Assembly (NCBI GenBank): GCA_965216565.1
Contig: OZ244170.1
Coordinates: forward strand, 2,464,001 to 2,528,000
Reading direction: 5' to 3'
From: Bythopirellula sp.
GTDB lineage: Bacteria > Planctomycetota > Planctomycetia > Pirellulales > Lacipirellulaceae
Length of the DNA: 64,000 nt
How positions within the stretch are numbered: the stretch's first letter is position 1; the number at the start of each line of letters is the position of its first letter. The notes under the pieces were generated by a model that was given only the letters and a program-made list of their open reading frames with translations, was not told where the DNA came from and made no database searches. Shown in pieces: positions 48,695 to 57,977 of this stretch. The position numbers and the translations under genes were made by a program.

Positions 48695-49687
48695 ATGGCA
48701 AGTACCGCATTTCGTTTACCGTTTGAACAGCCAATCTACGAATTGTCTGAGCAAATTGATGACCTTGAGAGCAATGACTCAAAGACGCCCGAAATGCACG
48801 ATCGCATTCGCGGTCTGCGGAAACAGCTCACCGAGACAACCAAAACGATCTACAAGAATCTCGGTCCTTGGGAAACGGTACGCGTTGCGCGTCATCCAGA
48901 TCGTCCCATGTTCACCGACTATATGAATTTGGTGTTTGATGAATTTGTCGAGCTACACGGCGACAAGTTTTTTGGCGACGATCGCGCACTCCGCACAGGT
49001 TTTGCCAAGATCGACCAATTCAAAGTGTTGGTAGCCGGGCATCACAAAGGCAAGACCCTCAAGGAGCGCAATGAGTGTTACTTTGGTTGTGCGCATCCAG
49101 AAGGGTATCGCAAGGCCATGGAAAAGATGCAATTGGCGGCTAAGTACGGCTTGCCAATCATCACGCTGATCGATACGCCAGGTGCCTATCCGGGAATTGG
49201 CGCCGAAGAACGGGGCCAGGCCCAGGTGATTGCCGAAAGCATGCTTGCCATGTCGCGACTGCCGGTGCCAATCATATGTATTGTGATTGGCGAAGGTGGC
49301 TCGGGCGGTGCTTTGGGAATTGGCGTTGGCGATCGTGTTGCCGTTTTGCAACACGCCTATTATTCGGTGATCAGTCCCGAAGGCTGCGCCGGCATCCTCT
49401 GGAAAAGTCACGACTACGCCGAGCAAGCGGCCCAAGCCTTGCGAATCACTTCCAGCCATCTGGAGAAGTTTGGAGCCGTCGACGACGTCATTGAGGAGCC
49501 CCTGGGTGGTGCCCATCGCGACCACCATCAGACGGCGGGTCGATTGAAGATGTATCTCATCAAAACGCTCCGCGAATTGTCGAAATTGCCCACCGACGAG
49601 CTGCTGAGTCAGCGGTACGAACGATTCCGCAAAATTGGCCCGTTCAGCGAGGCTGCGGACGATTCTGGGAGCAATTCTGAGGGCTGA
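48695..49687 (+). CDS. accA: Acetyl-CoA carboxylase carboxyltransferase alpha
   Basis: ARHPDRP, ELHGD, IDTPGAYPGIGAEERGQ, GEGGSGGAL and YSVISPEG motifs. Confidence 0.97.
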   Translation: MASTAFRLPFEQPIYELSEQIDDLESNDSKTPEMHDRIRGLRKQLTETTKTIYKNLGPWETVRVARHPDRPMFTDYMNLVFDEFVELHGDKFFGDDRALRTGFAKIDQFKVLVAGHHKGKTLKERNECYFGCAHPEGYRKAMEKMQLAAKYGLPIITLIDTPGAYPGIGAEERGQAQVIAESMLAMSRLPVPIICIVIGEGGSGGALGIGVGDRVAVLQHAYYSVISPEGCAGILWKSHDYAEQAAQALRITSSHLEKFGAVDDVIEEPLGGAHRDHHQTAGRLKMYLIKTLRELSKLPTDELLSQRYERFRKIGPFSEAADDSGSNSEG

Positions 49688-49947
49688 TTCTCTCGGGCCC
49701 GGCGGTCCATCGGATCGCGGCTGTTTTCCAGAGATTTAGACTTTGCTTGCTCCTTCTAAATCCCCTTTGCTGCATTCACATTCATGGTGCATGCTTCGCT
49801 ACTTCGGGGTCATTTTCGGACGCGCCAAATCGTTCCATTTACGGACAGATTTCTGACGTCAGCATGCGGCTGGTTCATTGCAATTTAGGTGACGGTTTGA
49901 GGCCGTAGGGTGGGGCGTGAGATGCAAATAGCATGTATTCCAGACTC

Positions 49948-49973
49948 TAGCCCCAACGTCCGATAATCATAGT
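49948..49973 (+). repeat. att core copy 1 (attL)
   Basis: TAGCCCCAACGTCCGATAATCATAGT. Confidence 0.95.
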
Positions 49974-49990
49974 GGAGTATGGCGTAAGCT

Positions 49991-50080
49991 GGCACTCATT
50001 CTAGGTTTCTCAGACCTGGACAGGGCAGTGCGGATCAGTCCCCGTGGGCGAGTCCGCACTGCCAATTTTCTAGGAGTGCC
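49991..50080 (+). promoter_or_regulatory. Hairpin upstream of rep (candidate origin or RBS-sequestering leader); copy 2 at 52864-52953
   Basis: GGCACTC/GAGTGCC and GGCAGTGCGGA/TCCGCACTGCC nested inverted repeats. Confidence 0.6.
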
Positions 50081-50085
50081 ACTAG

Positions 50086-51207
50086 ATGTTCTCTATGAAG
50101 CTCAAGGACCGCGAGTCCTGGCTTGATCCGGAGTCTGCCGGAATTTTGGGGTGGAAGTTGGGTAAGCGTCTGTGGGCCCGTTGCAAGGGCCACGAGGGAC
50201 GTTTCATCACGCTCACGTACGATCGTAAGAATTACCTAGATGCCCAAGATTGTTTCGACAAGTCCAGGGCACAGAAGCATGTCTCTCGTTTCATGCGGAA
50301 GCTAGGAGCAGCTATCAATTGCGATCTGCGTGGTAAGTGGATTTGCAAGTTGGAGTTCCAAGAGGGCGGGTGGGTCCACTGGCACATTCTGTTGCTGGAC
50401 GTTGGTTACATTCCACAGAAGATCGTTCTTGATATCTGGGGTAAGGGCTTCATCCACCTTAAGCAACTCAACGAAGCGAATGCGATGTATCTGACCAAGT
50501 ACGTTGCGAAGGACGGATCGATTCCAGGTTTCGTATATGACTATCCGTCACGGAGCATCAAGGTTGTCAGAGCGTCACTTGGTTTTTGGAACGATGAGCA
50601 GGCGAAGAGAGCGAGGGAGAAGGCGGCTAAGAGCCGTCGTTCTACTCGTGCTCAACTTATGAAGGGAGCGAAGCGGGAAGAACAGTTCTATGTTCCGGTT
50701 GGTGAGAAGCTGCGACAAGAGGCAGTGTTGTTCCGAACTGGGAGGCGAACATTCTCACTTAAGTGCTCTCGTCTTAAAGTACTGCAAGCTCTTCGTAAGT
50801 ACTGCGGACAACCCAAGGTTGAGGGAACATGGCGACACTACGCAGATGGTGATCAAGTACTGGATCGAGTGGTAGTGGAGTGTGATCCGGCGAGGACGAG
50901 CAGCGTGCGGAAGCAATCGCCCGCAGCCGGAGCAACAGCTCCGCATGACACCCGACCACTATTCTTGAAAGGAACCGGTAATCGTGTCGGATGGTGGTTG
51001 GTCCTGGTAAAGGGCAAGTATCGTACTGTTAGCCCTGCTGACATTGCTGGCAGATTGTCCAAGTGGTGGGCTAAGAATGCTCCGTGGTGGACGCTGCAGT
51101 GGATCGAGCAGGAAGCTAGATATCAGCTTGGAATGACGATGCACGGACATTGGGGTGAACCCTCGGATGCTCGTCCTAATTTGGAGAAGGCCTCATGCAA
51201 TTACTAA
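50086..51207 (+). CDS. HUH rolling-circle replication initiator (copy 1)
   Basis: Motif I FITLTY, motif II EFQ...HWHILL and motif III YLTKYVAK. Confidence 0.88.
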   Translation: MFSMKLKDRESWLDPESAGILGWKLGKRLWARCKGHEGRFITLTYDRKNYLDAQDCFDKSRAQKHVSRFMRKLGAAINCDLRGKWICKLEFQEGGWVHWHILLLDVGYIPQKIVLDIWGKGFIHLKQLNEANAMYLTKYVAKDGSIPGFVYDYPSRSIKVVRASLGFWNDEQAKRAREKAAKSRRSTRAQLMKGAKREEQFYVPVGEKLRQEAVLFRTGRRTFSLKCSRLKVLQALRKYCGQPKVEGTWRHYADGDQVLDRVVVECDPARTSSVRKQSPAAGATAPHDTRPLFLKGTGNRVGWWLVLVKGKYRTVSPADIAGRLSKWWAKNAPWWTLQWIEQEARYQLGMTMHGHWGEPSDARPNLEKASCNY

Positions 51208-51857
51208 CAGACATTCAACGAGATTACCTTAGCTGCATTCATTCGCAATGGGAGAGATCAGCTTTGACGTTTTGTCGTAAGAAGCTCAAGGTGTCCTCTG
51301 AATTTCTTCGGCGAGATGAGTTCGAGGAGCATTGGCAAGCTGCGATGGTTGAGATTGCGTATTTAATTCAGCGAGGCGAGTGGGACATCGTGAAGGAAGC
51401 TGAACGTGGCAATGGTCGAATTTGCTGGATAGCTTTGCAGACGTTTTATCGTTCACGGTATGAGCATAGGTATATGGAACGTGTGCTCGCTGATTCTAAT
51501 GAAGCCCTAATCTCCTTAGTTGAGTCCGAAGAACCAGTTGTTGGAGGAATTAAAGCGTCGAGAGTTGTAAACGAATTAAAGATGTTAATATCTGGTCTTC
51601 CAGAGAAGCGTCGATTGGTGATGGAGATGCTGGTTGAAGTGGTAGAAGACGCTAGATTTGATTTGGATGACATGATGCACTGCGTGAAGCTACGCATACG
51701 TGAGGGACTGTCTGAACGTGGTTATGAGTTCACGCCGATTCAAGTACAGAACGCGTTGTTCTCGGGGCGTAAGCAACTATGGGAACAACTTAGAGAACGT
51801 GGCTTGGTTTCAGGTGAAAGACCCCGCCTTGGAAGAGGTGGCGTTGGAAGTAAGTAG
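51195..51857 (+). CDS. Divergent ECF sigma-70-like protein (copy 1)
   Basis: Region-2-like DEFEEHWQAAMVEI and ICWIALQTF; region-4-like LISGLPEKRRLVMEML and QVQNALFSGRKQLWEQL. Confidence 0.6.
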   Translation: MQLLTDIQRDYLSCIHSQWERSALTFCRKKLKVSSEFLRRDEFEEHWQAAMVEIAYLIQRGEWDIVKEAERGNGRICWIALQTFYRSRYEHRYMERVLADSNEALISLVESEEPVVGGIKASRVVNELKMLISGLPEKRRLVMEMLVEVVEDARFDLDDMMHCVKLRIREGLSERGYEFTPIQVQNALFSGRKQLWEQLRERGLVSGERPRLGRGGVGSK

Positions 51858-51875
51858 TTTGGTTGTTTTCGTGTA

Positions 51876-52037
51876 GTTGTTGCACACTATGGGGTTGCCG
51901 CGTGAGATCGCGAAGGCGAGGCGGCGGAAGAGTTCGGTCCGTGTACAAGGGGCATGGAGAAGCTGAGCACGCCGCCTCGCCGTTAGCGACTCGGGGCAGT
52001 CGAACGCGGCAACAGGGTCCCATAGTGTTGCAACAAC
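51876..52037 (+). other. Long rod-like hairpin (candidate single-strand origin, packaging signal or ncRNA); copy 2 at 54749-54910
   Basis: Four nested perfect stems of 9, 9, 10 and 12 bp. Confidence 0.65.
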
Positions 52038-52060
52038 GGTTCATTTGAAAGGAGTTTGTA

Positions 52061-52348
52061 GTGTCTAATTTGTTTGGAGTTGCTAAAGCAGGTTTTGATA
52101 TTGTTGGGGAGGTCACTGAGGAGCGTATTCTTCGAAGTACCAAGGAGTCGGCCAAGGATTGGAAACAACCTGTGTGTAAGGTAGTTACAGCCGGCTCAAC
52201 TTTAGAGGTCCAACTAACTGAAGAACAGCATTCGCAGGTGTTGGTCGGGAATGCTTACCAGTTCGTTGGCAGAATTGCTAAGGAAGGAGGGAGAATCAAC
52301 CTAGTTGTTGAAGAATTAAGGAAGCTGGCGACGCCGAAGGCGTCTTGA
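52061..52348 (+). CDS. Probable ssDNA-binding (OB-fold-like) protein (copy 1)
   Basis: 95 aa, beta-strand pattern, AAGGAG RBS; size and context typical of SSBs of ssDNA replicons. Confidence 0.55.
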   Translation: MSNLFGVAKAGFDIVGEVTEERILRSTKESAKDWKQPVCKVVTAGSTLEVQLTEEQHSQVLVGNAYQFVGRIAKEGGRINLVVEELRKLATPKAS

Positions 52349-52349
52349 G

Positions 52350-52595
52350 ATGAAGATTCGACCGTACCGAAAGGATGGATATCGCCGACGTCGGCGAGTT
52401 CATGTGAGGATGGACGAATCGTTAGTAGATGCAATGGATGAGTTGGCTAGAGCACTCTCGCTGAGTCGTTCGCATCTCTGTGATCTGATTCTCGGCATAG
52501 CTGTCGAGGAGGGTGGTGAATGGTTACGGTCCGCAATCAACAAGCGTGTAAAACAGGCTCTTAATCGAAAACGTGACAGCACTTTTCAAGAATGA
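52350..52595 (+). CDS. Ribbon-helix-helix (CopG-like) regulator (copy 1)
   Basis: RVHVRMDESLVDAMDELARALSLSRSHLCDLIL fits the RHH pattern. Confidence 0.75.
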   Translation: MKIRPYRKDGYRRRRRVHVRMDESLVDAMDELARALSLSRSHLCDLILGIAVEEGGEWLRSAINKRVKQALNRKRDSTFQE

Positions 52596-52820
52596 GCTTG
52601 ATCTTTGATGATTGCTATCCGTATGATTTTGGAAGGTCGTTCGGGGTGTTCCTGAGCGCGAGAGTGTCTGAGAAATCGACGCGCATAAAATGGGCCCACA
52701 TACTCTCTGACGGGGGAACATGTGAGCCCAATGATTAAGCACGTCACTGAAAGAAATTTCACATCCAGATGACGCATCTACATGATACGAAATCGTCGCT
52801 GCAGGGCAAAGCCTATTCGG

Positions 52821-52846
52821 TAGCCCCAACGTCCGATAATCATAGT
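52821..52846 (+). repeat. att core copy 2 (unit junction, equivalent to attP)
   Basis: Same 26-mer with element sequence on both sides. Confidence 0.95.
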
Positions 52847-52958
52847 GGAGTATGGCGTAAGCTGGCACTCATTCTAGGTTTCTCAGACCTGGACAGGGCA
52901 GTGCGGATCAGTCCCCGTGGGCGAGTCCGCACTGCCAATTTTCTAGGAGTGCCACTAG

Positions 52959-54080
52959 ATGTTCTCTATGAAGCTCAAGGACCGCGAGTCCTGGCTTGAT
53001 CCGGAGTCTGCCGGAATTTTGGGGTGGAAGTTGGGTAAGCGTCTGTGGGCCCGTTGCAAGGGCCACGAGGGACGTTTCATCACGCTCACGTACGATCGTA
53101 AGAATTACCTAGATGCCCAAGATTGTTTCGACAAGTCCAGGGCACAGAAGCATGTCTCTCGTTTCATGCGGAAGCTAGGAGCAGCTATCAATTGCGATCT
53201 GCGTGGTAAGTGGATTTGCAAGTTGGAGTTCCAAGAGGGCGGGTGGGTCCACTGGCACATTCTGTTGCTGGACGTTGGTTACATTCCACAGAAGATCGTT
53301 CTTGATATCTGGGGTAAGGGCTTCATCCACCTTAAGCAACTCAACGAAGCGAATGCGATGTATCTGACCAAGTACGTTGCGAAGGACGGATCGATTCCAG
53401 GTTTCGTATATGACTATCCGTCACGGAGCATCAAGGTTGTCAGAGCGTCACTTGGTTTTTGGAACGATGAGCAGGCGAAGAGAGCGAGGGAGAAGGCGGC
53501 TAAGAGCCGTCGTTCTACTCGTGCTCAACTTATGAAGGGAGCGAAGCGGGAAGAACAGTTCTATGTTCCGGTTGGTGAGAAGCTGCGACAAGAGGCAGTG
53601 TTGTTCCGAACTGGGAGGCGAACATTCTCACTTAAGTGCTCTCGTCTTAAAGTACTGCAAGCTCTTCGTAAGTACTGCGGACAACCCAAGGTTGAGGGAA
53701 CATGGCGACACTACGCAGATGGTGATCAAGTACTGGATCGAGTGGTAGTGGAGTGTGATCCGGCGAGGACGAGCAGCGTGCGGAAGCAATCGCCCGCAGC
53801 CGGAGCAACAGCTCCGCATGACACCCGACCACTATTCTTGAAAGGAACCGGTAATCGTGTCGGATGGTGGTTGGTCCTGGTAAAGGGCAAGTATCGTACT
53901 GTTAGCCCTGCTGACATTGCTGGCAGATTGTCCAAGTGGTGGGCTAAGAATGCTCCGTGGTGGACGCTGCAGTGGATCGAGCAGGAAGCTAGATATCAGC
54001 TTGGAATGACGATGCACGGACATTGGGGTGAACCCTCGGATGCTCGTCCTAATTTGGAGAAGGCCTCATGCAATTACTAA
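52959..54080 (+). CDS. HUH rolling-circle replication initiator (copy 2)
   Basis: Translation identical to 50086-51207. Confidence 0.88.
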   Translation: MFSMKLKDRESWLDPESAGILGWKLGKRLWARCKGHEGRFITLTYDRKNYLDAQDCFDKSRAQKHVSRFMRKLGAAINCDLRGKWICKLEFQEGGWVHWHILLLDVGYIPQKIVLDIWGKGFIHLKQLNEANAMYLTKYVAKDGSIPGFVYDYPSRSIKVVRASLGFWNDEQAKRAREKAAKSRRSTRAQLMKGAKREEQFYVPVGEKLRQEAVLFRTGRRTFSLKCSRLKVLQALRKYCGQPKVEGTWRHYADGDQVLDRVVVECDPARTSSVRKQSPAAGATAPHDTRPLFLKGTGNRVGWWLVLVKGKYRTVSPADIAGRLSKWWAKNAPWWTLQWIEQEARYQLGMTMHGHWGEPSDARPNLEKASCNY

Positions 54081-54730
54081 CAGACATTCAACGAGATTAC
54101 CTTAGCTGCATTCATTCGCAATGGGAGAGATCAGCTTTGACGTTTTGTCGTAAGAAGCTCAAGGTGTCCTCTGAATTTCTTCGGCGAGATGAGTTCGAGG
54201 AGCATTGGCAAGCTGCGATGGTTGAGATTGCGTATTTAATTCAGCGAGGCGAGTGGGACATCGTGAAGGAAGCTGAACGTGGCAATGGTCGAATTTGCTG
54301 GATAGCTTTGCAGACGTTTTATCGTTCACGGTATGAGCATAGGTATATGGAACGTGTGCTCGCTGATTCTAATGAAGCCCTAATCTCCTTAGTTGAGTCC
54401 GAAGAACCAGTTGTTGGAGGAATTAAAGCGTCGAGAGTTGTAAACGAATTAAAGATGTTAATATCTGGTCTTCCAGAGAAGCGTCGATTGGTGATGGAGA
54501 TGCTGGTTGAAGTGGTAGAAGACGCTAGATTTGATTTGGATGACATGATGCACTGCGTGAAGCTACGCATACGTGAGGGACTGTCTGAACGTGGTTATGA
54601 GTTCACGCCGATTCAAGTACAGAACGCGTTGTTCTCGGGGCGTAAGCAACTATGGGAACAACTTAGAGAACGTGGCTTGGTTTCAGGTGAAAGACCCCGC
54701 CTTGGAAGAGGTGGCGTTGGAAGTAAGTAG
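54068..54730 (+). CDS. Divergent ECF sigma-70-like protein (copy 2)
   Basis: Identical to 51195-51857. Confidence 0.6.
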   Translation: MQLLTDIQRDYLSCIHSQWERSALTFCRKKLKVSSEFLRRDEFEEHWQAAMVEIAYLIQRGEWDIVKEAERGNGRICWIALQTFYRSRYEHRYMERVLADSNEALISLVESEEPVVGGIKASRVVNELKMLISGLPEKRRLVMEMLVEVVEDARFDLDDMMHCVKLRIREGLSERGYEFTPIQVQNALFSGRKQLWEQLRERGLVSGERPRLGRGGVGSK

Positions 54731-54933
54731 TTTGGTTGTTTTCGTGTAGTTGTTGCACACTATGGGGTTGCCGCGTGAGATCGCGAAGGCGAGGCGGCGG
54801 AAGAGTTCGGTCCGTGTACAAGGGGCATGGAGAAGCTGAGCACGCCGCCTCGCCGTTAGCGACTCGGGGCAGTCGAACGCGGCAACAGGGTCCCATAGTG
54901 TTGCAACAACGGTTCATTTGAAAGGAGTTTGTA

Positions 54934-55221
54934 GTGTCTAATTTGTTTGGAGTTGCTAAAGCAGGTTTTGATATTGTTGGGGAGGTCACTGAGGAGCGTA
55001 TTCTTCGAAGTACCAAGGAGTCGGCCAAGGATTGGAAACAACCTGTGTGTAAGGTAGTTACAGCCGGCTCAACTTTAGAGGTCCAACTAACTGAAGAACA
55101 GCATTCGCAGGTGTTGGTCGGGAATGCTTACCAGTTCGTTGGCAGAATTGCTAAGGAAGGAGGGAGAATCAACCTAGTTGTTGAAGAATTAAGGAAGCTG
55201 GCGACGCCGAAGGCGTCTTGA
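54934..55221 (+). CDS. Probable ssDNA-binding protein (copy 2)
   Basis: Identical to 52061-52348. Confidence 0.55.
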   Translation: MSNLFGVAKAGFDIVGEVTEERILRSTKESAKDWKQPVCKVVTAGSTLEVQLTEEQHSQVLVGNAYQFVGRIAKEGGRINLVVEELRKLATPKAS

Positions 55222-55222
55222 G

Positions 55223-55468
55223 ATGAAGATTCGACCGTACCGAAAGGATGGATATCGCCGACGTCGGCGAGTTCATGTGAGGATGGACGAATCGTTAGTA
55301 GATGCAATGGATGAGTTGGCTAGAGCACTCTCGCTGAGTCGTTCGCATCTCTGTGATCTGATTCTCGGCATAGCTGTCGAGGAGGGTGGTGAATGGTTAC
55401 GGTCCGCAATCAACAAGCGTGTAAAACAGGCTCTTAATCGAAAACGTGACAGCACTTTTCAAGAATGA
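55223..55468 (+). CDS. Ribbon-helix-helix regulator (copy 2)
   Basis: Identical to 52350-52595. Confidence 0.75.
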   Translation: MKIRPYRKDGYRRRRRVHVRMDESLVDAMDELARALSLSRSHLCDLILGIAVEEGGEWLRSAINKRVKQALNRKRDSTFQE

Positions 55469-55693
55469 GCTTGATCTTTGATGATTGCTATCCGTATGAT
55501 TTTGGAAGGTCGTTCGGGGTGTTCCTGAGCGCGAGAGTGTCTGAGAAATCGACGCGCATAAAATGGGCCCACATACTCTCTGACGGGGGAACATGTGAGC
55601 CCAATGATTAAGCACGTCACTGAAAGAAATTTCACATCCAGATGACGCATCTACATGATACGAAATCGTCGCTGCAGGGCAAAGCCTATTCGG

Positions 55694-55729
55694 TAGCCCC
55701 AACGTCCGATAATCATAGTTATGTTCGTT
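55694..55729 (+). other. att core copy 3 (attR), containing a candidate chromosomal dif site at 55702-55729
   Basis: ACGTCCGATAA-TCATAG-TTATGTTCGTT has the 11-6-11 layout and ATAA-N6-TTATGTT of E. coli dif (GGTGCGCATAA-TGTATA-TTATGTTAAAT). Confidence 0.75.
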
Positions 55730-55916
55730 TCCGGGGCGTTTTTCCCCGGGATTTAAGCCATTGGCTCTCTCCTGCTCTGCGAAGTGTGTTCTGTGGCGGA
55801 TAGCTTGATTGGTGGAAGAAGTCGAGCTAGTCTGTCGTCTCACGGCGGCTACCAATCCCCCACAATGAATCCTCAGTTTGCCCCCCCTCTCGCCACTTCA
55901 AAAGGATGTGAATTGC

Positions 55917-57977
55917 ATGCTCTCTGCGACACGATTTCTGTTATCGATTGCCGTCATTTTGGTTGGGATTTTATTCCCAAATCGGGCCTATTCCGACGAA
56001 GGAATGTGGCTGTTCGAGGACCTGCCCAAAGACGCTCTGAAGCGGCAATATGACTTCGAGCCCACAGAGGAGTGGGCCCGGCACGTCATGCTCTCCAGCG
56101 TCCGATTTAGCTCCGGGGGATCGGCCTCTTTTGTCTCCAGTAACGGCCTGGTTTTGACCAATCACCACGTGGCCGAGGACACGCTGCATAAGCTCTCCAC
56201 GCCCGAGCAAAACTACATGAAAAACGGCTTCCTGGCCCAATCGCAGGACGATGAGATTCCAGCCCCCGATTTGGAGCTGAATCAGCTTGTTTCGGTCGAA
56301 GATGTGACCGACCGCGTCGAGGCGGCAGTGTCTGACGAGATGGATACTTCGGCCGCAAAGCAGGCCCGCAGGGCCGTGATGGCGCAAATCGAACAGGAAT
56401 CGCTCGACGCCACGGGTCTGCGAAGCGATGTGATCACGCTCTATGGCGGCGCAAAGTACCATCTATATCGCTACAAGAAGTACACCGATGTACGCTTAGT
56501 CTGGGCTCCGGAATACAAAGCGGCATTCTTCGGAGGCGACAACGACAATTTCGAGTATCCCCGGTACTGCATGGACGTGACGTTGTTCCGTGTTTACGAA
56601 GACGGCAAGCCAGTGGAAGTCGAGCATTTCCTCCGTTGGTCAGAAAACGGAGCGGCCGAAGGCGAACTCGTCTTCGTTTCTGGCAACCCCGGCTATACCG
56701 AACGAGACAAGACGGCCGACGCCTTGCGATTTGCTCGTGACTTTTCTTTGCCAAGCTATCTACAGTACATCACGCGGATGGAAATTGAGCTGCAGCAGTA
56801 TAGCAACGAAAGCCCGGAACATCGCCGACGCGCCCACGATGATCTGTTTGGAATTCAAAACAATCGCAAACGTTCGCTCGGCATGAGTGAAGGTTTGCAG
56901 AATCCAGCGCTGATCGCCACAAAGGAAGCTGCGGAGAAACAATTGCGTGCTCGGCTAGCAGAACGTGACGATCTGGAAGAGTTCGCCACAGCGTGGGATG
57001 AGATTGCCACCGCCCAACAGGAACGAGAAAAGCTCGTCAACGATTCTTTCTATATTTCATCGCGGCTGTACGAGATTGCTTTAGAACTGGTTCTCATGGC
57101 CACCGAAGATGCGAAACCGAATGAAGATCGTTACGAAGAGTTCCGCAATTCGGGTCGCGAATCGCTCGAACACGAATTGTTCTCCCCTGCGCCTATTTAC
57201 AACGATTTGGAGATTGCAAAGCTTGGAGCGAGTCTCTCGCTAGTGGCGGGCAAGTTGGGTGGCGATCATCCACTGGTCGTCACGATGCTTGCCGGGAAAA
57301 GCCCTCGCCAGCGGGCTGCTGAGCTAGTTGCTGGCACCAAGCTCAACGATGTTGAGTTGCGAAAGACACTCGCTAAGGAGGGCGCAGCTGCCATCGAAGC
57401 TTCAGACGATCCCATGATCGAGTTCGTACGAGCGATTGAGCCCTACTACCGCAAAGTTCGCGATCGCCAGGAAGAGCTTGAGGAAATCGAAAAACAGGCT
57501 TACGGCTCAATCCGCGAGGCCAAGACGGCGCTCGACGGTGCGAGCGGTTATCCCGATGCCACCTTTACCCTGCGGCTGGCTCTTGGTGTGGTGAAGGGCT
57601 ACGAAGAAGACGGCGTGTGGGTACCTCCATTTACGACCATCGCCGGTGCCTTTGAACACGAAGAGAAGCACGAAGCTAAGGAACCATGGCAACTGCCGGA
57701 GTCGTATCACGAGCATCGCGACCAGGTGGATGGTTCGGCACGGCTAAACTTTGTTTGTACGGCGGACATCATCGGCGGCAACTCCGGGAGTCCCGTCGTG
57801 AATCGCGATGGCGAGTTTGTCGGCATCATCTTTGACGGCAACATTCAAAGTCTCACTGCTTCGTACTACTACGACGACGTGATCTCGCGAGCCGTCTCGG
57901 TCCACAGCAGCGGCATCCGTGAAGTGATCCGCAATATCTACGGTGCGGACGATTTGGCTGACGAGTTGGGGGAATGA
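55917..57977 (+). CDS. S46 family peptidase (dipeptidyl-peptidase)
   Basis: Signal peptide followed by DEGMW; LTNHH, FGGDNDNFEYPR, PDATFTLR and DIIGGNSGSP motifs. Confidence 0.93.
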   Translation: MLSATRFLLSIAVILVGILFPNRAYSDEGMWLFEDLPKDALKRQYDFEPTEEWARHVMLSSVRFSSGGSASFVSSNGLVLTNHHVAEDTLHKLSTPEQNYMKNGFLAQSQDDEIPAPDLELNQLVSVEDVTDRVEAAVSDEMDTSAAKQARRAVMAQIEQESLDATGLRSDVITLYGGAKYHLYRYKKYTDVRLVWAPEYKAAFFGGDNDNFEYPRYCMDVTLFRVYEDGKPVEVEHFLRWSENGAAEGELVFVSGNPGYTERDKTADALRFARDFSLPSYLQYITRMEIELQQYSNESPEHRRRAHDDLFGIQNNRKRSLGMSEGLQNPALIATKEAAEKQLRARLAERDDLEEFATAWDEIATAQQEREKLVNDSFYISSRLYEIALELVLMATEDAKPNEDRYEEFRNSGRESLEHELFSPAPIYNDLEIAKLGASLSLVAGKLGGDHPLVVTMLAGKSPRQRAAELVAGTKLNDVELRKTLAKEGAAAIEASDDPMIEFVRAIEPYYRKVRDRQEELEEIEKQAYGSIREAKTALDGASGYPDATFTLRLALGVVKGYEEDGVWVPPFTTIAGAFEHEEKHEAKEPWQLPESYHEHRDQVDGSARLNFVCTADIIGGNSGSPVVNRDGEFVGIIFDGNIQSLTASYYYDDVISRAVSVHSSGIREVIRNIYGADDLADELGE

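Follow-up and report, generated by a model that had tools for sequence, protein, structure and literature searches.

How small can a replicating element be and still carry a sigma factor of its own? The question is raised by a 220-codon open reading frame (ORF), here called ORF220, in a stretch of 64,000 nucleotides from Bythopirellula sp., a member of the Planctomycetota (contig OZ244170.1, positions 2,464,001 to 2,528,000). We call the whole stretch the window, and positions are those of the window unless they are said to be contig positions. ORF220 follows rep, the gene of a rolling-circle replication initiator, and an initial annotation, made from the letters of the window, compared it by eye with the extracytoplasmic function (ECF) sigma factors. 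We propose, with a probability of about 0.65, that ORF220 is a highly divergent ECF (group IV) sigma factor carried by an integrative mobile element that exploits Xer (IMEX), that it docks on the beta' subunit of RNA polymerase (RNAP), and that it drives promoters specific to the element.

The first point to settle is whether there is a gene. ORF220 runs from an ATG at 51195 to 51857 and overlaps by 13 nucleotides the end of rep (50086 to 51207), as the initial annotation had it. When 1.84 billion representatives were searched exhaustively with HMMER, four full-length homologues of 213 to 224 amino acids came up, located on contigs of 2.06 to 5.76 kb, with 22-30% identity and E-values from 2.7e-15 to 3.6e-9. 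Together with ORF220 they form the five-row alignment that we call the ORF220 family, which has 13 invariant columns; another match of the same search, P0006 (1004 amino acids), was judged spurious. A word-indexed protein search with ORF220 alone matched only itself, and the family profile added only P0003 and P0005. A search of 400 other genomes of the phylum gave no member of the family, and scans of metagenomes, viruses and genomes recovered no DNA context for the four homologues, viral scans made with Rep being empty as well; L004, a match of the metagenome scan, proved to be spurious and off-frame. The nearest homologue, P0002, shares a 2,287-nucleotide Logan contig with the Rep homologue P0032, which is suggestive of a link between rep and sigma gene there too. 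That ORF220 matches no curated family would fit a frame that is open by chance or was mis-called, and that yields no protein. This reading deserves practically no credit in view of the four homologues, which are colinear with ORF220 over their full length, of a two-domain fold model, of a synteny after rep that is conserved, and of a Shine-Dalgarno-like stretch, GGAGAAGG, located 6 to 13 nucleotides before the ATG: judged by its sequence, ORF220 is a real gene. A 15-nucleotide repeat, CTGAACGTGG(CA/TT)ATG, occurs twice within it, at 51400-51414 and 51712-51726, 312 nucleotides apart.

The comparison by eye used four peptide segments, each of which occurs in the translated sequence: DEFEEHWQAAMVEI (residues 41-54) and ICWIALQTF (76-84), assigned to ECF region 2, and LISGLPEKRRLVMEML (130-145) and QVQNALFSGRKQLWEQL (182-198), assigned to region 4. 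For a comparison by profiles, we took as reference the ECF sigma factors of the host: the six-frame translation of its genome has 32 matches to the Pfam model Sigma70_r4_2, of which 26 are over the cut-off, and removing three outside the range of 150 to 260 amino acids leaves 23 proteins. The hhalign alignment between the ORF220 family and these proteins scores 31.5 (P = 3.2e-4) over 162-168 colinear columns, covering positions 6-203 of the family and 14-188 of the 199 positions of the host alignment; reversed controls score 13.3 and 10.4, and the best of 20 column shuffles scores 18.9. The family-invariant residues R192, L195 and W196 fall in the region of the recognition helix, where the alignment sets them against the R..L positions conserved in ECF region 4.2. 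In NCBIfam, the sole match of ORF220 is an ECF sigma model, with an E-value of 0.092 and 12.4 bits where the cut-off is 130, and P0002 matches the sigma70-ECF model with an E-value of 0.0044. The profile test of the sigma-2 and sigma-4 assignment thus did give matches: ORF220 stays below the cut-offs of Pfam and NCBIfam, but the hhalign alignment to ECF sigma factors is above its controls, and becomes strong by way of the syntenic relatives.

These relatives come from Rep. An alignment of Rep led to 12 loci in named assemblies of Planctomycetota (a scan with a stricter first look gave Rep in 3 of 400 genomes of the phylum), and in five of the 12 loci, L081, L082, L085, L087 and L091, the ORF that abuts or overlaps the end of rep is sigma-like. 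Against the Sigma70_r4_2 cut-off of 25.7 bits, L081 reaches 26.6, L085 reaches 32.2 and L082 reaches 25.5; the E-value of L087 is 0.0076. Taken as single sequences, the five ORFs align to the host ECF sigma factors with hhalign probabilities of 82.6-96.3% (reversed controls at most 0.8%), and taken as one alignment, with a probability of 98.7% (P = 2.6e-16). The same alignment matches the ORF220 family with a probability of 89.4% (P = 2.1e-6) over 166 columns, the reversed controls giving 2.7% and 0.2%. A weaker sixth case, L094, was met in the sample of 400 genomes; the ORF after its rep gene aligns to the ECF sigma factors with a probability of 26.8% (P = 6.8e-4) and adjoins a dif-like site whose XerD arm is TTATGTTAAAT. 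Signs of an IMEX recur in several of these loci, which lie at dif-like sites and have the core repeated at both junctions, as in the unit studied here: two copies of CCGATAATGCATG enclose 3,207 bp in L081, 19-nucleotide repeats enclose 2,828 bp in L082, and 20-nucleotide repeats enclose 2,950 bp in L087; in L091, a dif-like site comes after the sigma gene. The pair formed by rep and a sigma-like gene, which the initial annotation proposed to look for elsewhere, thus recurs in elements of about 3 kb in Planctomycetota.

The annotation had also staked its claim on structure searches finding sigma-2 or sigma-4 folds, and both domains of the predicted structure match solved sigma-2 and sigma-4 domains, so that the outcome it named as refuting did not arise. 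The AlphaFold model, computed from the five-row alignment, has a pLDDT of 74.8 and consists of two helical domains, residues 1-92 and 121-201, joined by a linker (93-119) that is disordered in the model, with a pLDDT below 50. We searched 48,161 chains with a method independent of Foldseek, the identity of chains in complexes being inferred from their length. Residues 119-206 match region 4 of sigmaE (2h27_D; Z 8.2, rmsd 2.4, 69 of 69 residues), and the C-terminal domain matches region 4 of SigR (5fgm_A; Z 7.6, rmsd 2.2, 64 of 65 residues), as well as CnrH and region 4 of SigL and SigD. Residues 2-89 match the sigma-2 domain of SigR (1h3l_B; Z 6.9, rmsd 3.3, 76 of 78 residues), and the N-terminal domain matches region 2 of sigmaE (2mao; Z 6.4) and the sigma-2 domains of SigW and SigC. 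Of the 25 highest-ranked rows, 24 are, to judge by their entry titles, sigma factors or complexes that contain one. With Foldseek, the top eight PDB rows are all complexes of the ECF sigma factors H or L of M. tuberculosis, and the top viral rows are RpoE-like or ECF-like sigma factors of phages, all labelled as tailed. What gives weight to the fold evidence is the presence of two domains in the right order, which indicates one family. Both the model and the hhalign alignment place about 10 extra residues, roughly 150-160, between the helix that resembles region 4.1 and the helix-turn-helix, and the insertion announced before the recognition helix is therefore real at the level of these predictions.

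A sigma factor should bind RNAP, and we modelled residues 1-100 of ORF220 with residues 1-360 of the host beta' subunit (25-row alignment). The complex has an ipSAE of 0.79 (0.79, 0.81 and 0.79 in the separate runs), the best of three controls being 0.00; in calibration, 116 of 157 solved complexes attained the mark applied to this score, as did 2 of 215 mismatched pairs. The runs have at least 78% of their contacts in common, with a pLDDT of at least 77 for the partner. In the model, residues 257-299 of beta', the conserved clamp helices (DLNDLYRR...DALFDN), are joined to residues 41-59 and 1-17 of ORF220, with the tightest contact at Q48. The segment read by eye as region 2 thus falls on the helix, 41-59, that lies on the clamp helices, and on this model ORF220 is predicted to bind them.

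The predicted contact with beta' would also suit a decoy, that is, a protein that occupies the host core RNAP, or an anti-sigma factor, with no productive recognition of promoters, and that would damp or re-route the transcription of the host for the benefit of the element. The insertion before the helix-turn-helix of the sigma-4 domain speaks for such a role, and so does the element itself, in which no ECF-type promoter is recognisable. However, the invariance of R192, L195 and W196 suggests that contact with DNA is retained, and the syntenic relatives match Sigma70_r4_2, L081 and L085 over the cut-off; we hold the decoy to be very unlikely.

Several results weigh against a promoter-directing sigma factor, and they are best considered together. 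ORF220 has no match at E<=1 in Pfam or PHROG, its family members have nothing in Pfam at E<=10 except two unrelated weak matches, it is absent from the 32 Sigma70_r4_2 matches of its own genome, and the family profile found no sigma factor among PDB sequences. The hhalign probability of the family compared directly with the host ECF sigma factors is only 38.9%, and that of ORF220 as a single sequence is 2.7%. Only five sequences stand behind the fold model, whose pTM is 0.42; Z-scores of 7-8 in the fold search (VIA) belong to the grey zone of the tool, and are common among helical proteins; and all Foldseek E-values, for PDB and viral entries, are above 0.001. Residue Q48, central to the predicted interface, reads Q/Q/N/G/Q over the family, and the complex may have passed as a mirror of the likeness to solved complexes between sigma factors and beta', so that binding by ORF220 itself is not established by it. 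The generic ECF promoter pattern has no match in the unit, where shuffling predicts 0.47, and a scan for sigma-70-type promoters is unremarkable (5 sites, compared with 2.5 +/- 1.8). Finally, in L080, the locus closest in Rep, the place of the sigma gene is taken by an unrelated ORF of 106 amino acids (L080:976-1296). The slot after rep is consequently variable, and a sigma factor must be either dispensable for the core functions of L080 or supplied otherwise. As for the curated sequence models, their failure to recognise ORF220 makes it a far outlier of the sigma family.

If ORF220 is indeed a sigma factor, its mode of action could be the following. The two genes rep and ORF220 would form a translationally coupled operon, with ORF220 in second place. 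The helix at residues 41-59, similar to that of region 2.2, would dock on the clamp helices of beta' in the host core enzyme, and the C-terminal helix-turn-helix would read an element similar to a -35 box. The resulting holoenzyme would transcribe putative promoters specific to the element, making its transcription independent of the sigma factors of the host. In opposition to this activity would stand the product of the last gene of the unit, a ribbon-helix-helix (RHH) protein that matches Pfam RHH_1 right at the cut-off (E = 4.7e-4, 20.5 bits) and that is, on this family assignment, likely a repressor.

The initial annotation offered another use for a sigma factor in this place: to direct RNAP to prime the minus strand at the adjacent hairpin. 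Directly after ORF220, the single-stranded DNA of 51876-52037 folds with an energy of -56.2 kcal/mol, compared with -30.0 +/- 3.0 for 200 shuffles (z = -8.8), and this hairpin of 160 nucleotides is a candidate single-strand origin. ORF220 could then steer RNAP to the folded origin for the synthesis of an RNA primer, instead of steering it to the promoters of messenger RNAs. The evidence of sigma fold and beta' contact fits this proposal equally well, and, according to an excerpt of PMC5714925, RNA polymerase makes a single primer at the single-strand origin of pT181-type plasmids. However, the idea is weakened by L080, which keeps a long hairpin at the corresponding place (z = -7.6) and has no sigma gene. 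In L081 the strongest hairpin lies beyond the att site, which parts it from the sigma gene; in L082 and L087 the hairpin scan of related elements detected none comparable beside the sigma gene; and the stem yielded no promoter-like motif. Priming as the function of ORF220 therefore appears unlikely, and we return to the sigma factor that serves promoters.

The unit that carries these genes is 2,873 bp long and present in two tandem copies, 49948-52820 and 52821-55693, that are 100% identical; ORF220 consequently occurs twice. A third copy of the 26-nucleotide core alone, at 55694-55719, closes the array, the core being identical at 49948, 52821 and 55694. On the contig, a single one of 5.21 Mb that is the host chromosome, the element spans 2,513,948-2,519,729, and the unit is found nowhere else in the genome. 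In Logan contigs from four runs of one study, the two copies are merged as one unitig of 2,899 nucleotides, whose depths are not to be read as copy numbers, and a 34-nucleotide junction forms a separate unitig; an empty integration site was not seen in them. The expression "tiny replicon" of the initial annotation is thus right about the size of the unit, and has to be amended, as the unit is not free in the assembly and forms a tandem integrated at a dif site. Table 1 lists the features of the array.

Table 1. Positions, in the window, of the features of the two unit copies and of the sites that border them.
Feature	Position	Strand	Remarks
attL, 26-nucleotide core common to chromosome and element	49948..49973	.	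8 nucleotides, then XerC-arm-like ACGTCCGATAA, central TCATAG, 1 nucleotide
Hairpin, 40-nucleotide palindrome, 11-bp stem	50024..50063	+	22 nucleotides upstream of rep
rep, 373 aa, HUH rolling-circle initiator	50086..51207	+	Pfam PF23343; PHROG replication initiators
ORF220, probable divergent two-domain ECF-type sigma factor	51195..51857	+	Fold, profiles, synteny, complex model
Long imperfect hairpin, about 160 nucleotides, in spacer between ORF220 and ORF95	51876..52037	+	Single-stranded DNA folding compared with shuffles
ORF95, GTG start after AAGGAG	52061..52348	+	38% identical homologue in L080
81-aa ribbon-helix-helix protein	52350..52595	+	Pfam RHH_1; 72% identical homologue in L080
attP-type junction core, copy 1/copy 2	52821..52846	.	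Identical 26-nucleotide core; 34-nucleotide Logan unitig
Hairpin upstream of rep, copy 2	52897..52936		Second copy of 40-nucleotide hairpin
rep, copy 2, identical	52959..54080	+	
ORF220, copy 2, identical	54068..54730	+	
Long hairpin, copy 2	54749..54910	+	From identity of unit copies
ORF95 (54934-55221) and RHH gene (55223-55468), copy 2	54934..55468	+	
attR, regenerated chromosomal dif	55702..55729	+	ACGTCCGATAA / TCATAG / TTATGTTCGTT: XerC arm, 6-nucleotide centre, XerD arm

Each unit encodes, on the + strand, four genes: rep, ORF220, ORF95 (95 amino acids) and the RHH gene. Rep matches Pfam PF23343 (REP_ORF2-G2P) with an E-value of 6.3e-15 and 55.7 bits, for a cut-off of 27.8. It contains the motifs FITLTYD, HWHILL and YLTKYVAK, and the residues H98, H100, Y135 and Y139, which belong to its HUH and Y-x3-Y motifs, are invariant in 15 homologues. 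Over about 105-145 amino acids, its HUH core has 25-36% identity with Microviridae VP4 and the Reps of small plasmids. ORF95 has a poor AlphaFold2 model (pLDDT 59); its nearest named protein-atlas clusters are gene-V-like single-stranded DNA-binding proteins (Putative_G5P, ssDBP, Phage_DNA_bind), with scores of only 0.86-0.87, a weak lead toward a protein of this kind. An Rfam scan of 49600-56000 gave no match at E<=1.

As for origins, the 40-nucleotide hairpin upstream of rep is a candidate Rep-binding or origin element. The hexamer CTTGAT comes right after the stop codon of the RHH gene, at 52597-52602 and 55470-55475. It resembles the core of the nick site in origins of the phiX174 and pC194 types, and it may be this hexamer, and not the hairpin, that is the double-strand origin.

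Where the array ends, the chromosome has a dif site: attR consists of an XerC arm of 11 bp, a centre of 6 bp and an XerD arm of 11 bp, the layout described for dif in a portion of PMC9226527. The pattern CGATAANNNNNNTTATGTT, the dif-like core CGATAA-N6-TTATGTT, has a single match in the genome, at attR. Of 61 genomes of the class, 36 contain the pattern, at 47 places in total and exactly once in 28 of them; the reversed control occurs at 4 places. A second signal coincides with this one: among 54 tested genome positions, the junction at attR has the most polarised 8-mer, GGGCAGGG, with 112 copies pointing toward the junction and 14 away from it (z = 8.7, best of 54). This 8-mer fits the motif that orients FtsK in E. 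coli, GGGNAGGG. Its cumulative orientation tops at contig position 2,511,857 and the next motif, at 2,524,061, is reversed: the switch in sense brackets the element. The host genome encodes an FtsK with a gamma domain, and two tyrosine recombinase frames of the size of Xer proteins, 316 and 320 amino acids, with Phage_int_SAM_1.

The element is thus integrated at the chromosomal dif, as a tandem dimer. None of its four ORFs is a recombinase of its own, only Rep and the RHH protein having Pfam or PHROG matches, and integration was presumably carried out by the XerC and XerD recombinases of the host. The attP core shares the XerC arm and the centre of dif, and agrees with the XerD arm at only 4 of 11 positions; the element DNA that follows the attL core likewise has no XerD-arm-like sequence, and a complete dif is re-formed on the right side only. 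With no recombinase, a position at dif and an attP that shares XerC arm and centre, the element is a tandem IMEX. In CTX-phi, the tandem arrangement lets Rep make circles of unit length without excision; by analogy, Rep could here make such circles between the two copies of the 40-nucleotide hairpin, 50024-50063 and 52897-52936. No gene of the Zot family, a sign of a helper phage, was found in the host genome.

The poor XerD arm of attP opens one more possibility for ORF220, that of an accessory protein that binds DNA and not RNAP: a regulator whose helix-turn-helix derives from a sigma factor, or a factor that assists or activates Xer at attP, in the manner of XafT. Passages of PMC9226527 report that the attP of TLC-phi binds XerD poorly and needs the phage's own factor, XafT. 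Moreover, sigma-4 is a generic helix-turn-helix fold, and non-sigma proteins with this fold appear at ranks 26-45 of the fold list. The N-terminal domain, however, has an independent match of its own to sigma-2, a domain that is not a DNA-binding helix-turn-helix, the docking model with beta' passes its controls, and the syntenic relatives are ECF sigma factors with two domains. Neither ORF220, ORF95 nor ORF76 matches a Pfam family at E<=1, DUF3653, the family of XafT, included. An accessory role is thus improbable, and a private sigma factor agrees better than it, or than the decoy, with the two-domain architecture and the beta' model.

Beyond the single element, one may ask whether rep and the sigma gene are the conserved core of an undescribed family of Xer-dependent rolling-circle elements of about 3 kb, in which the sigma factor supplies transcription and possibly the priming of the single-strand origin. 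In this full form, the proposal is rather doubtful. In L080, which ends at a near-identical dif, Rep is 61% identical and the RHH protein and ORF95 are also conserved, to the degree given in Table 1. L083 has methyltransferase-like fragments and no sigma gene after rep. In the Sedimentisphaerales assemblies (L086 and L088-L090), rep is followed by proteins of 379-484 amino acids with TSP3 repeats and by ORFs of 416-425 amino acids, with no sigma gene; these loci may represent larger elements, or viruses, with a Rep of the same lineage.

How does a private sigma factor of this kind compare with known systems? The ECF sigma factors, such as SigH and SigL of M. tuberculosis, sigmaE of E. coli and SigR of S. 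coelicolor, have the same succession of sigma-2, linker and sigma-4 in about 200 amino acids, their profiles are colinear with that of ORF220, and they share the docking of the region 2.2 helix on the beta' clamp helices, predicted in the case of ORF220. Contrary to them, ORF220 is below curated cut-offs, has an insertion of about 10 residues between region 4.1 and the helix-turn-helix, adjoins no recognised anti-sigma gene, and resides in a 2.9-kb rolling-circle element, where it is coupled to rep. Large phages and plasmids are known to carry sigma factors, for example SigN of plasmid pBS32. Tailed phages with double-stranded DNA and large plasmids bring a sigma factor to redirect the RNAP of the host, as this element would, but this one is a rolling-circle element of less than 3 kb with about four genes.

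The mode of integration has its counterpart in the IMEX of Vibrio (the TLC-phi satellite, CTX-phi and RS1), which also do without an integrase, use dif through a repeated core of XerC arm and centre, regenerate dif on one side, form tandem arrays and have a rolling-circle Rep module. RS1, with 2.7 kb, is also near in size. The attP of TLC-phi, like the one described here, has no good XerD arm (PMC9226527, in part). In contrast to the Vibrio elements, the present one has a host of another phylum, a Rep of the REP_ORF2-G2P type, no morphogenesis genes, and a sigma factor. With small rolling-circle plasmids and Microviridae it shares the HUH core of Rep, and long hairpins such as its own are typical of single-strand origins; it differs from them by its integration at dif and by its sigma gene, of which none is reported for these replicons in the literature searched. 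In that literature, which covered journals other than subscription ones, we found no paper on IMEX that mentions a sigma factor, no rolling-circle replicon with its own sigma factor, and no sigma factor in an element of about four genes. A sigma cargo had been called very unusual for a replicon under 3 kb: the lack of reports agrees with this, but the pairing is not a one-off, as it recurs in a family of elements of about 3 kb.

ORF220 is a new branch, and a very divergent one, of a known family, and what is new in the element is the combination of rep, sigma factor and Xer-mediated integration in less than 3 kb. The recurrence of the rep-sigma core in elements of about 3 kb suggests that a minimal replicon can have control over the specificity of RNAP among its primary needs. 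If the proposal of a family with rep and sigma gene as its core is true, these elements contain a minimal "bring your own sigma" module for replication and transcription, not known for single-stranded DNA or rolling-circle elements. They also offer a compact and testable system for asking how a sigma factor that has diverged so far still docks on core RNAP. Since the sigma family lies below the cut-offs of Pfam and NCBIfam, similar genes are annotated as hypothetical.

The element also marks dif and the polar motif GGGCAGGG, and thereby opens to study the resolution of chromosome dimers, and the elements that exploit Xer, in Planctomycetota, bacteria that divide without FtsZ. A genome-wide prediction of dif published in 2011 failed in Planctomycetes, according to a section of PMC3025954. 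In the present genome, neither GC skew nor the orientation of long ORFs marks the dif region as the terminus. The cumulative GC skew has its peak at 1.40 Mb and its trough at 3.86 Mb, beside a DnaA-like gene at 3.867 Mb; dnaA is at 1.75 Mb, and the switch of GGGCAGGG and dif are at 2.52 Mb, with the opposite pole near 5.06 Mb, in disagreement with the extremes of the skew. Several genomes of one genus have 2-4 dif-like sites, on separate contigs, and in three related genomes dif-like motifs form inverted pairs 33-76 nucleotides apart (G437:C37:17955-18006, G443:C22:115226-115311 and G416:C570:2233-2327).

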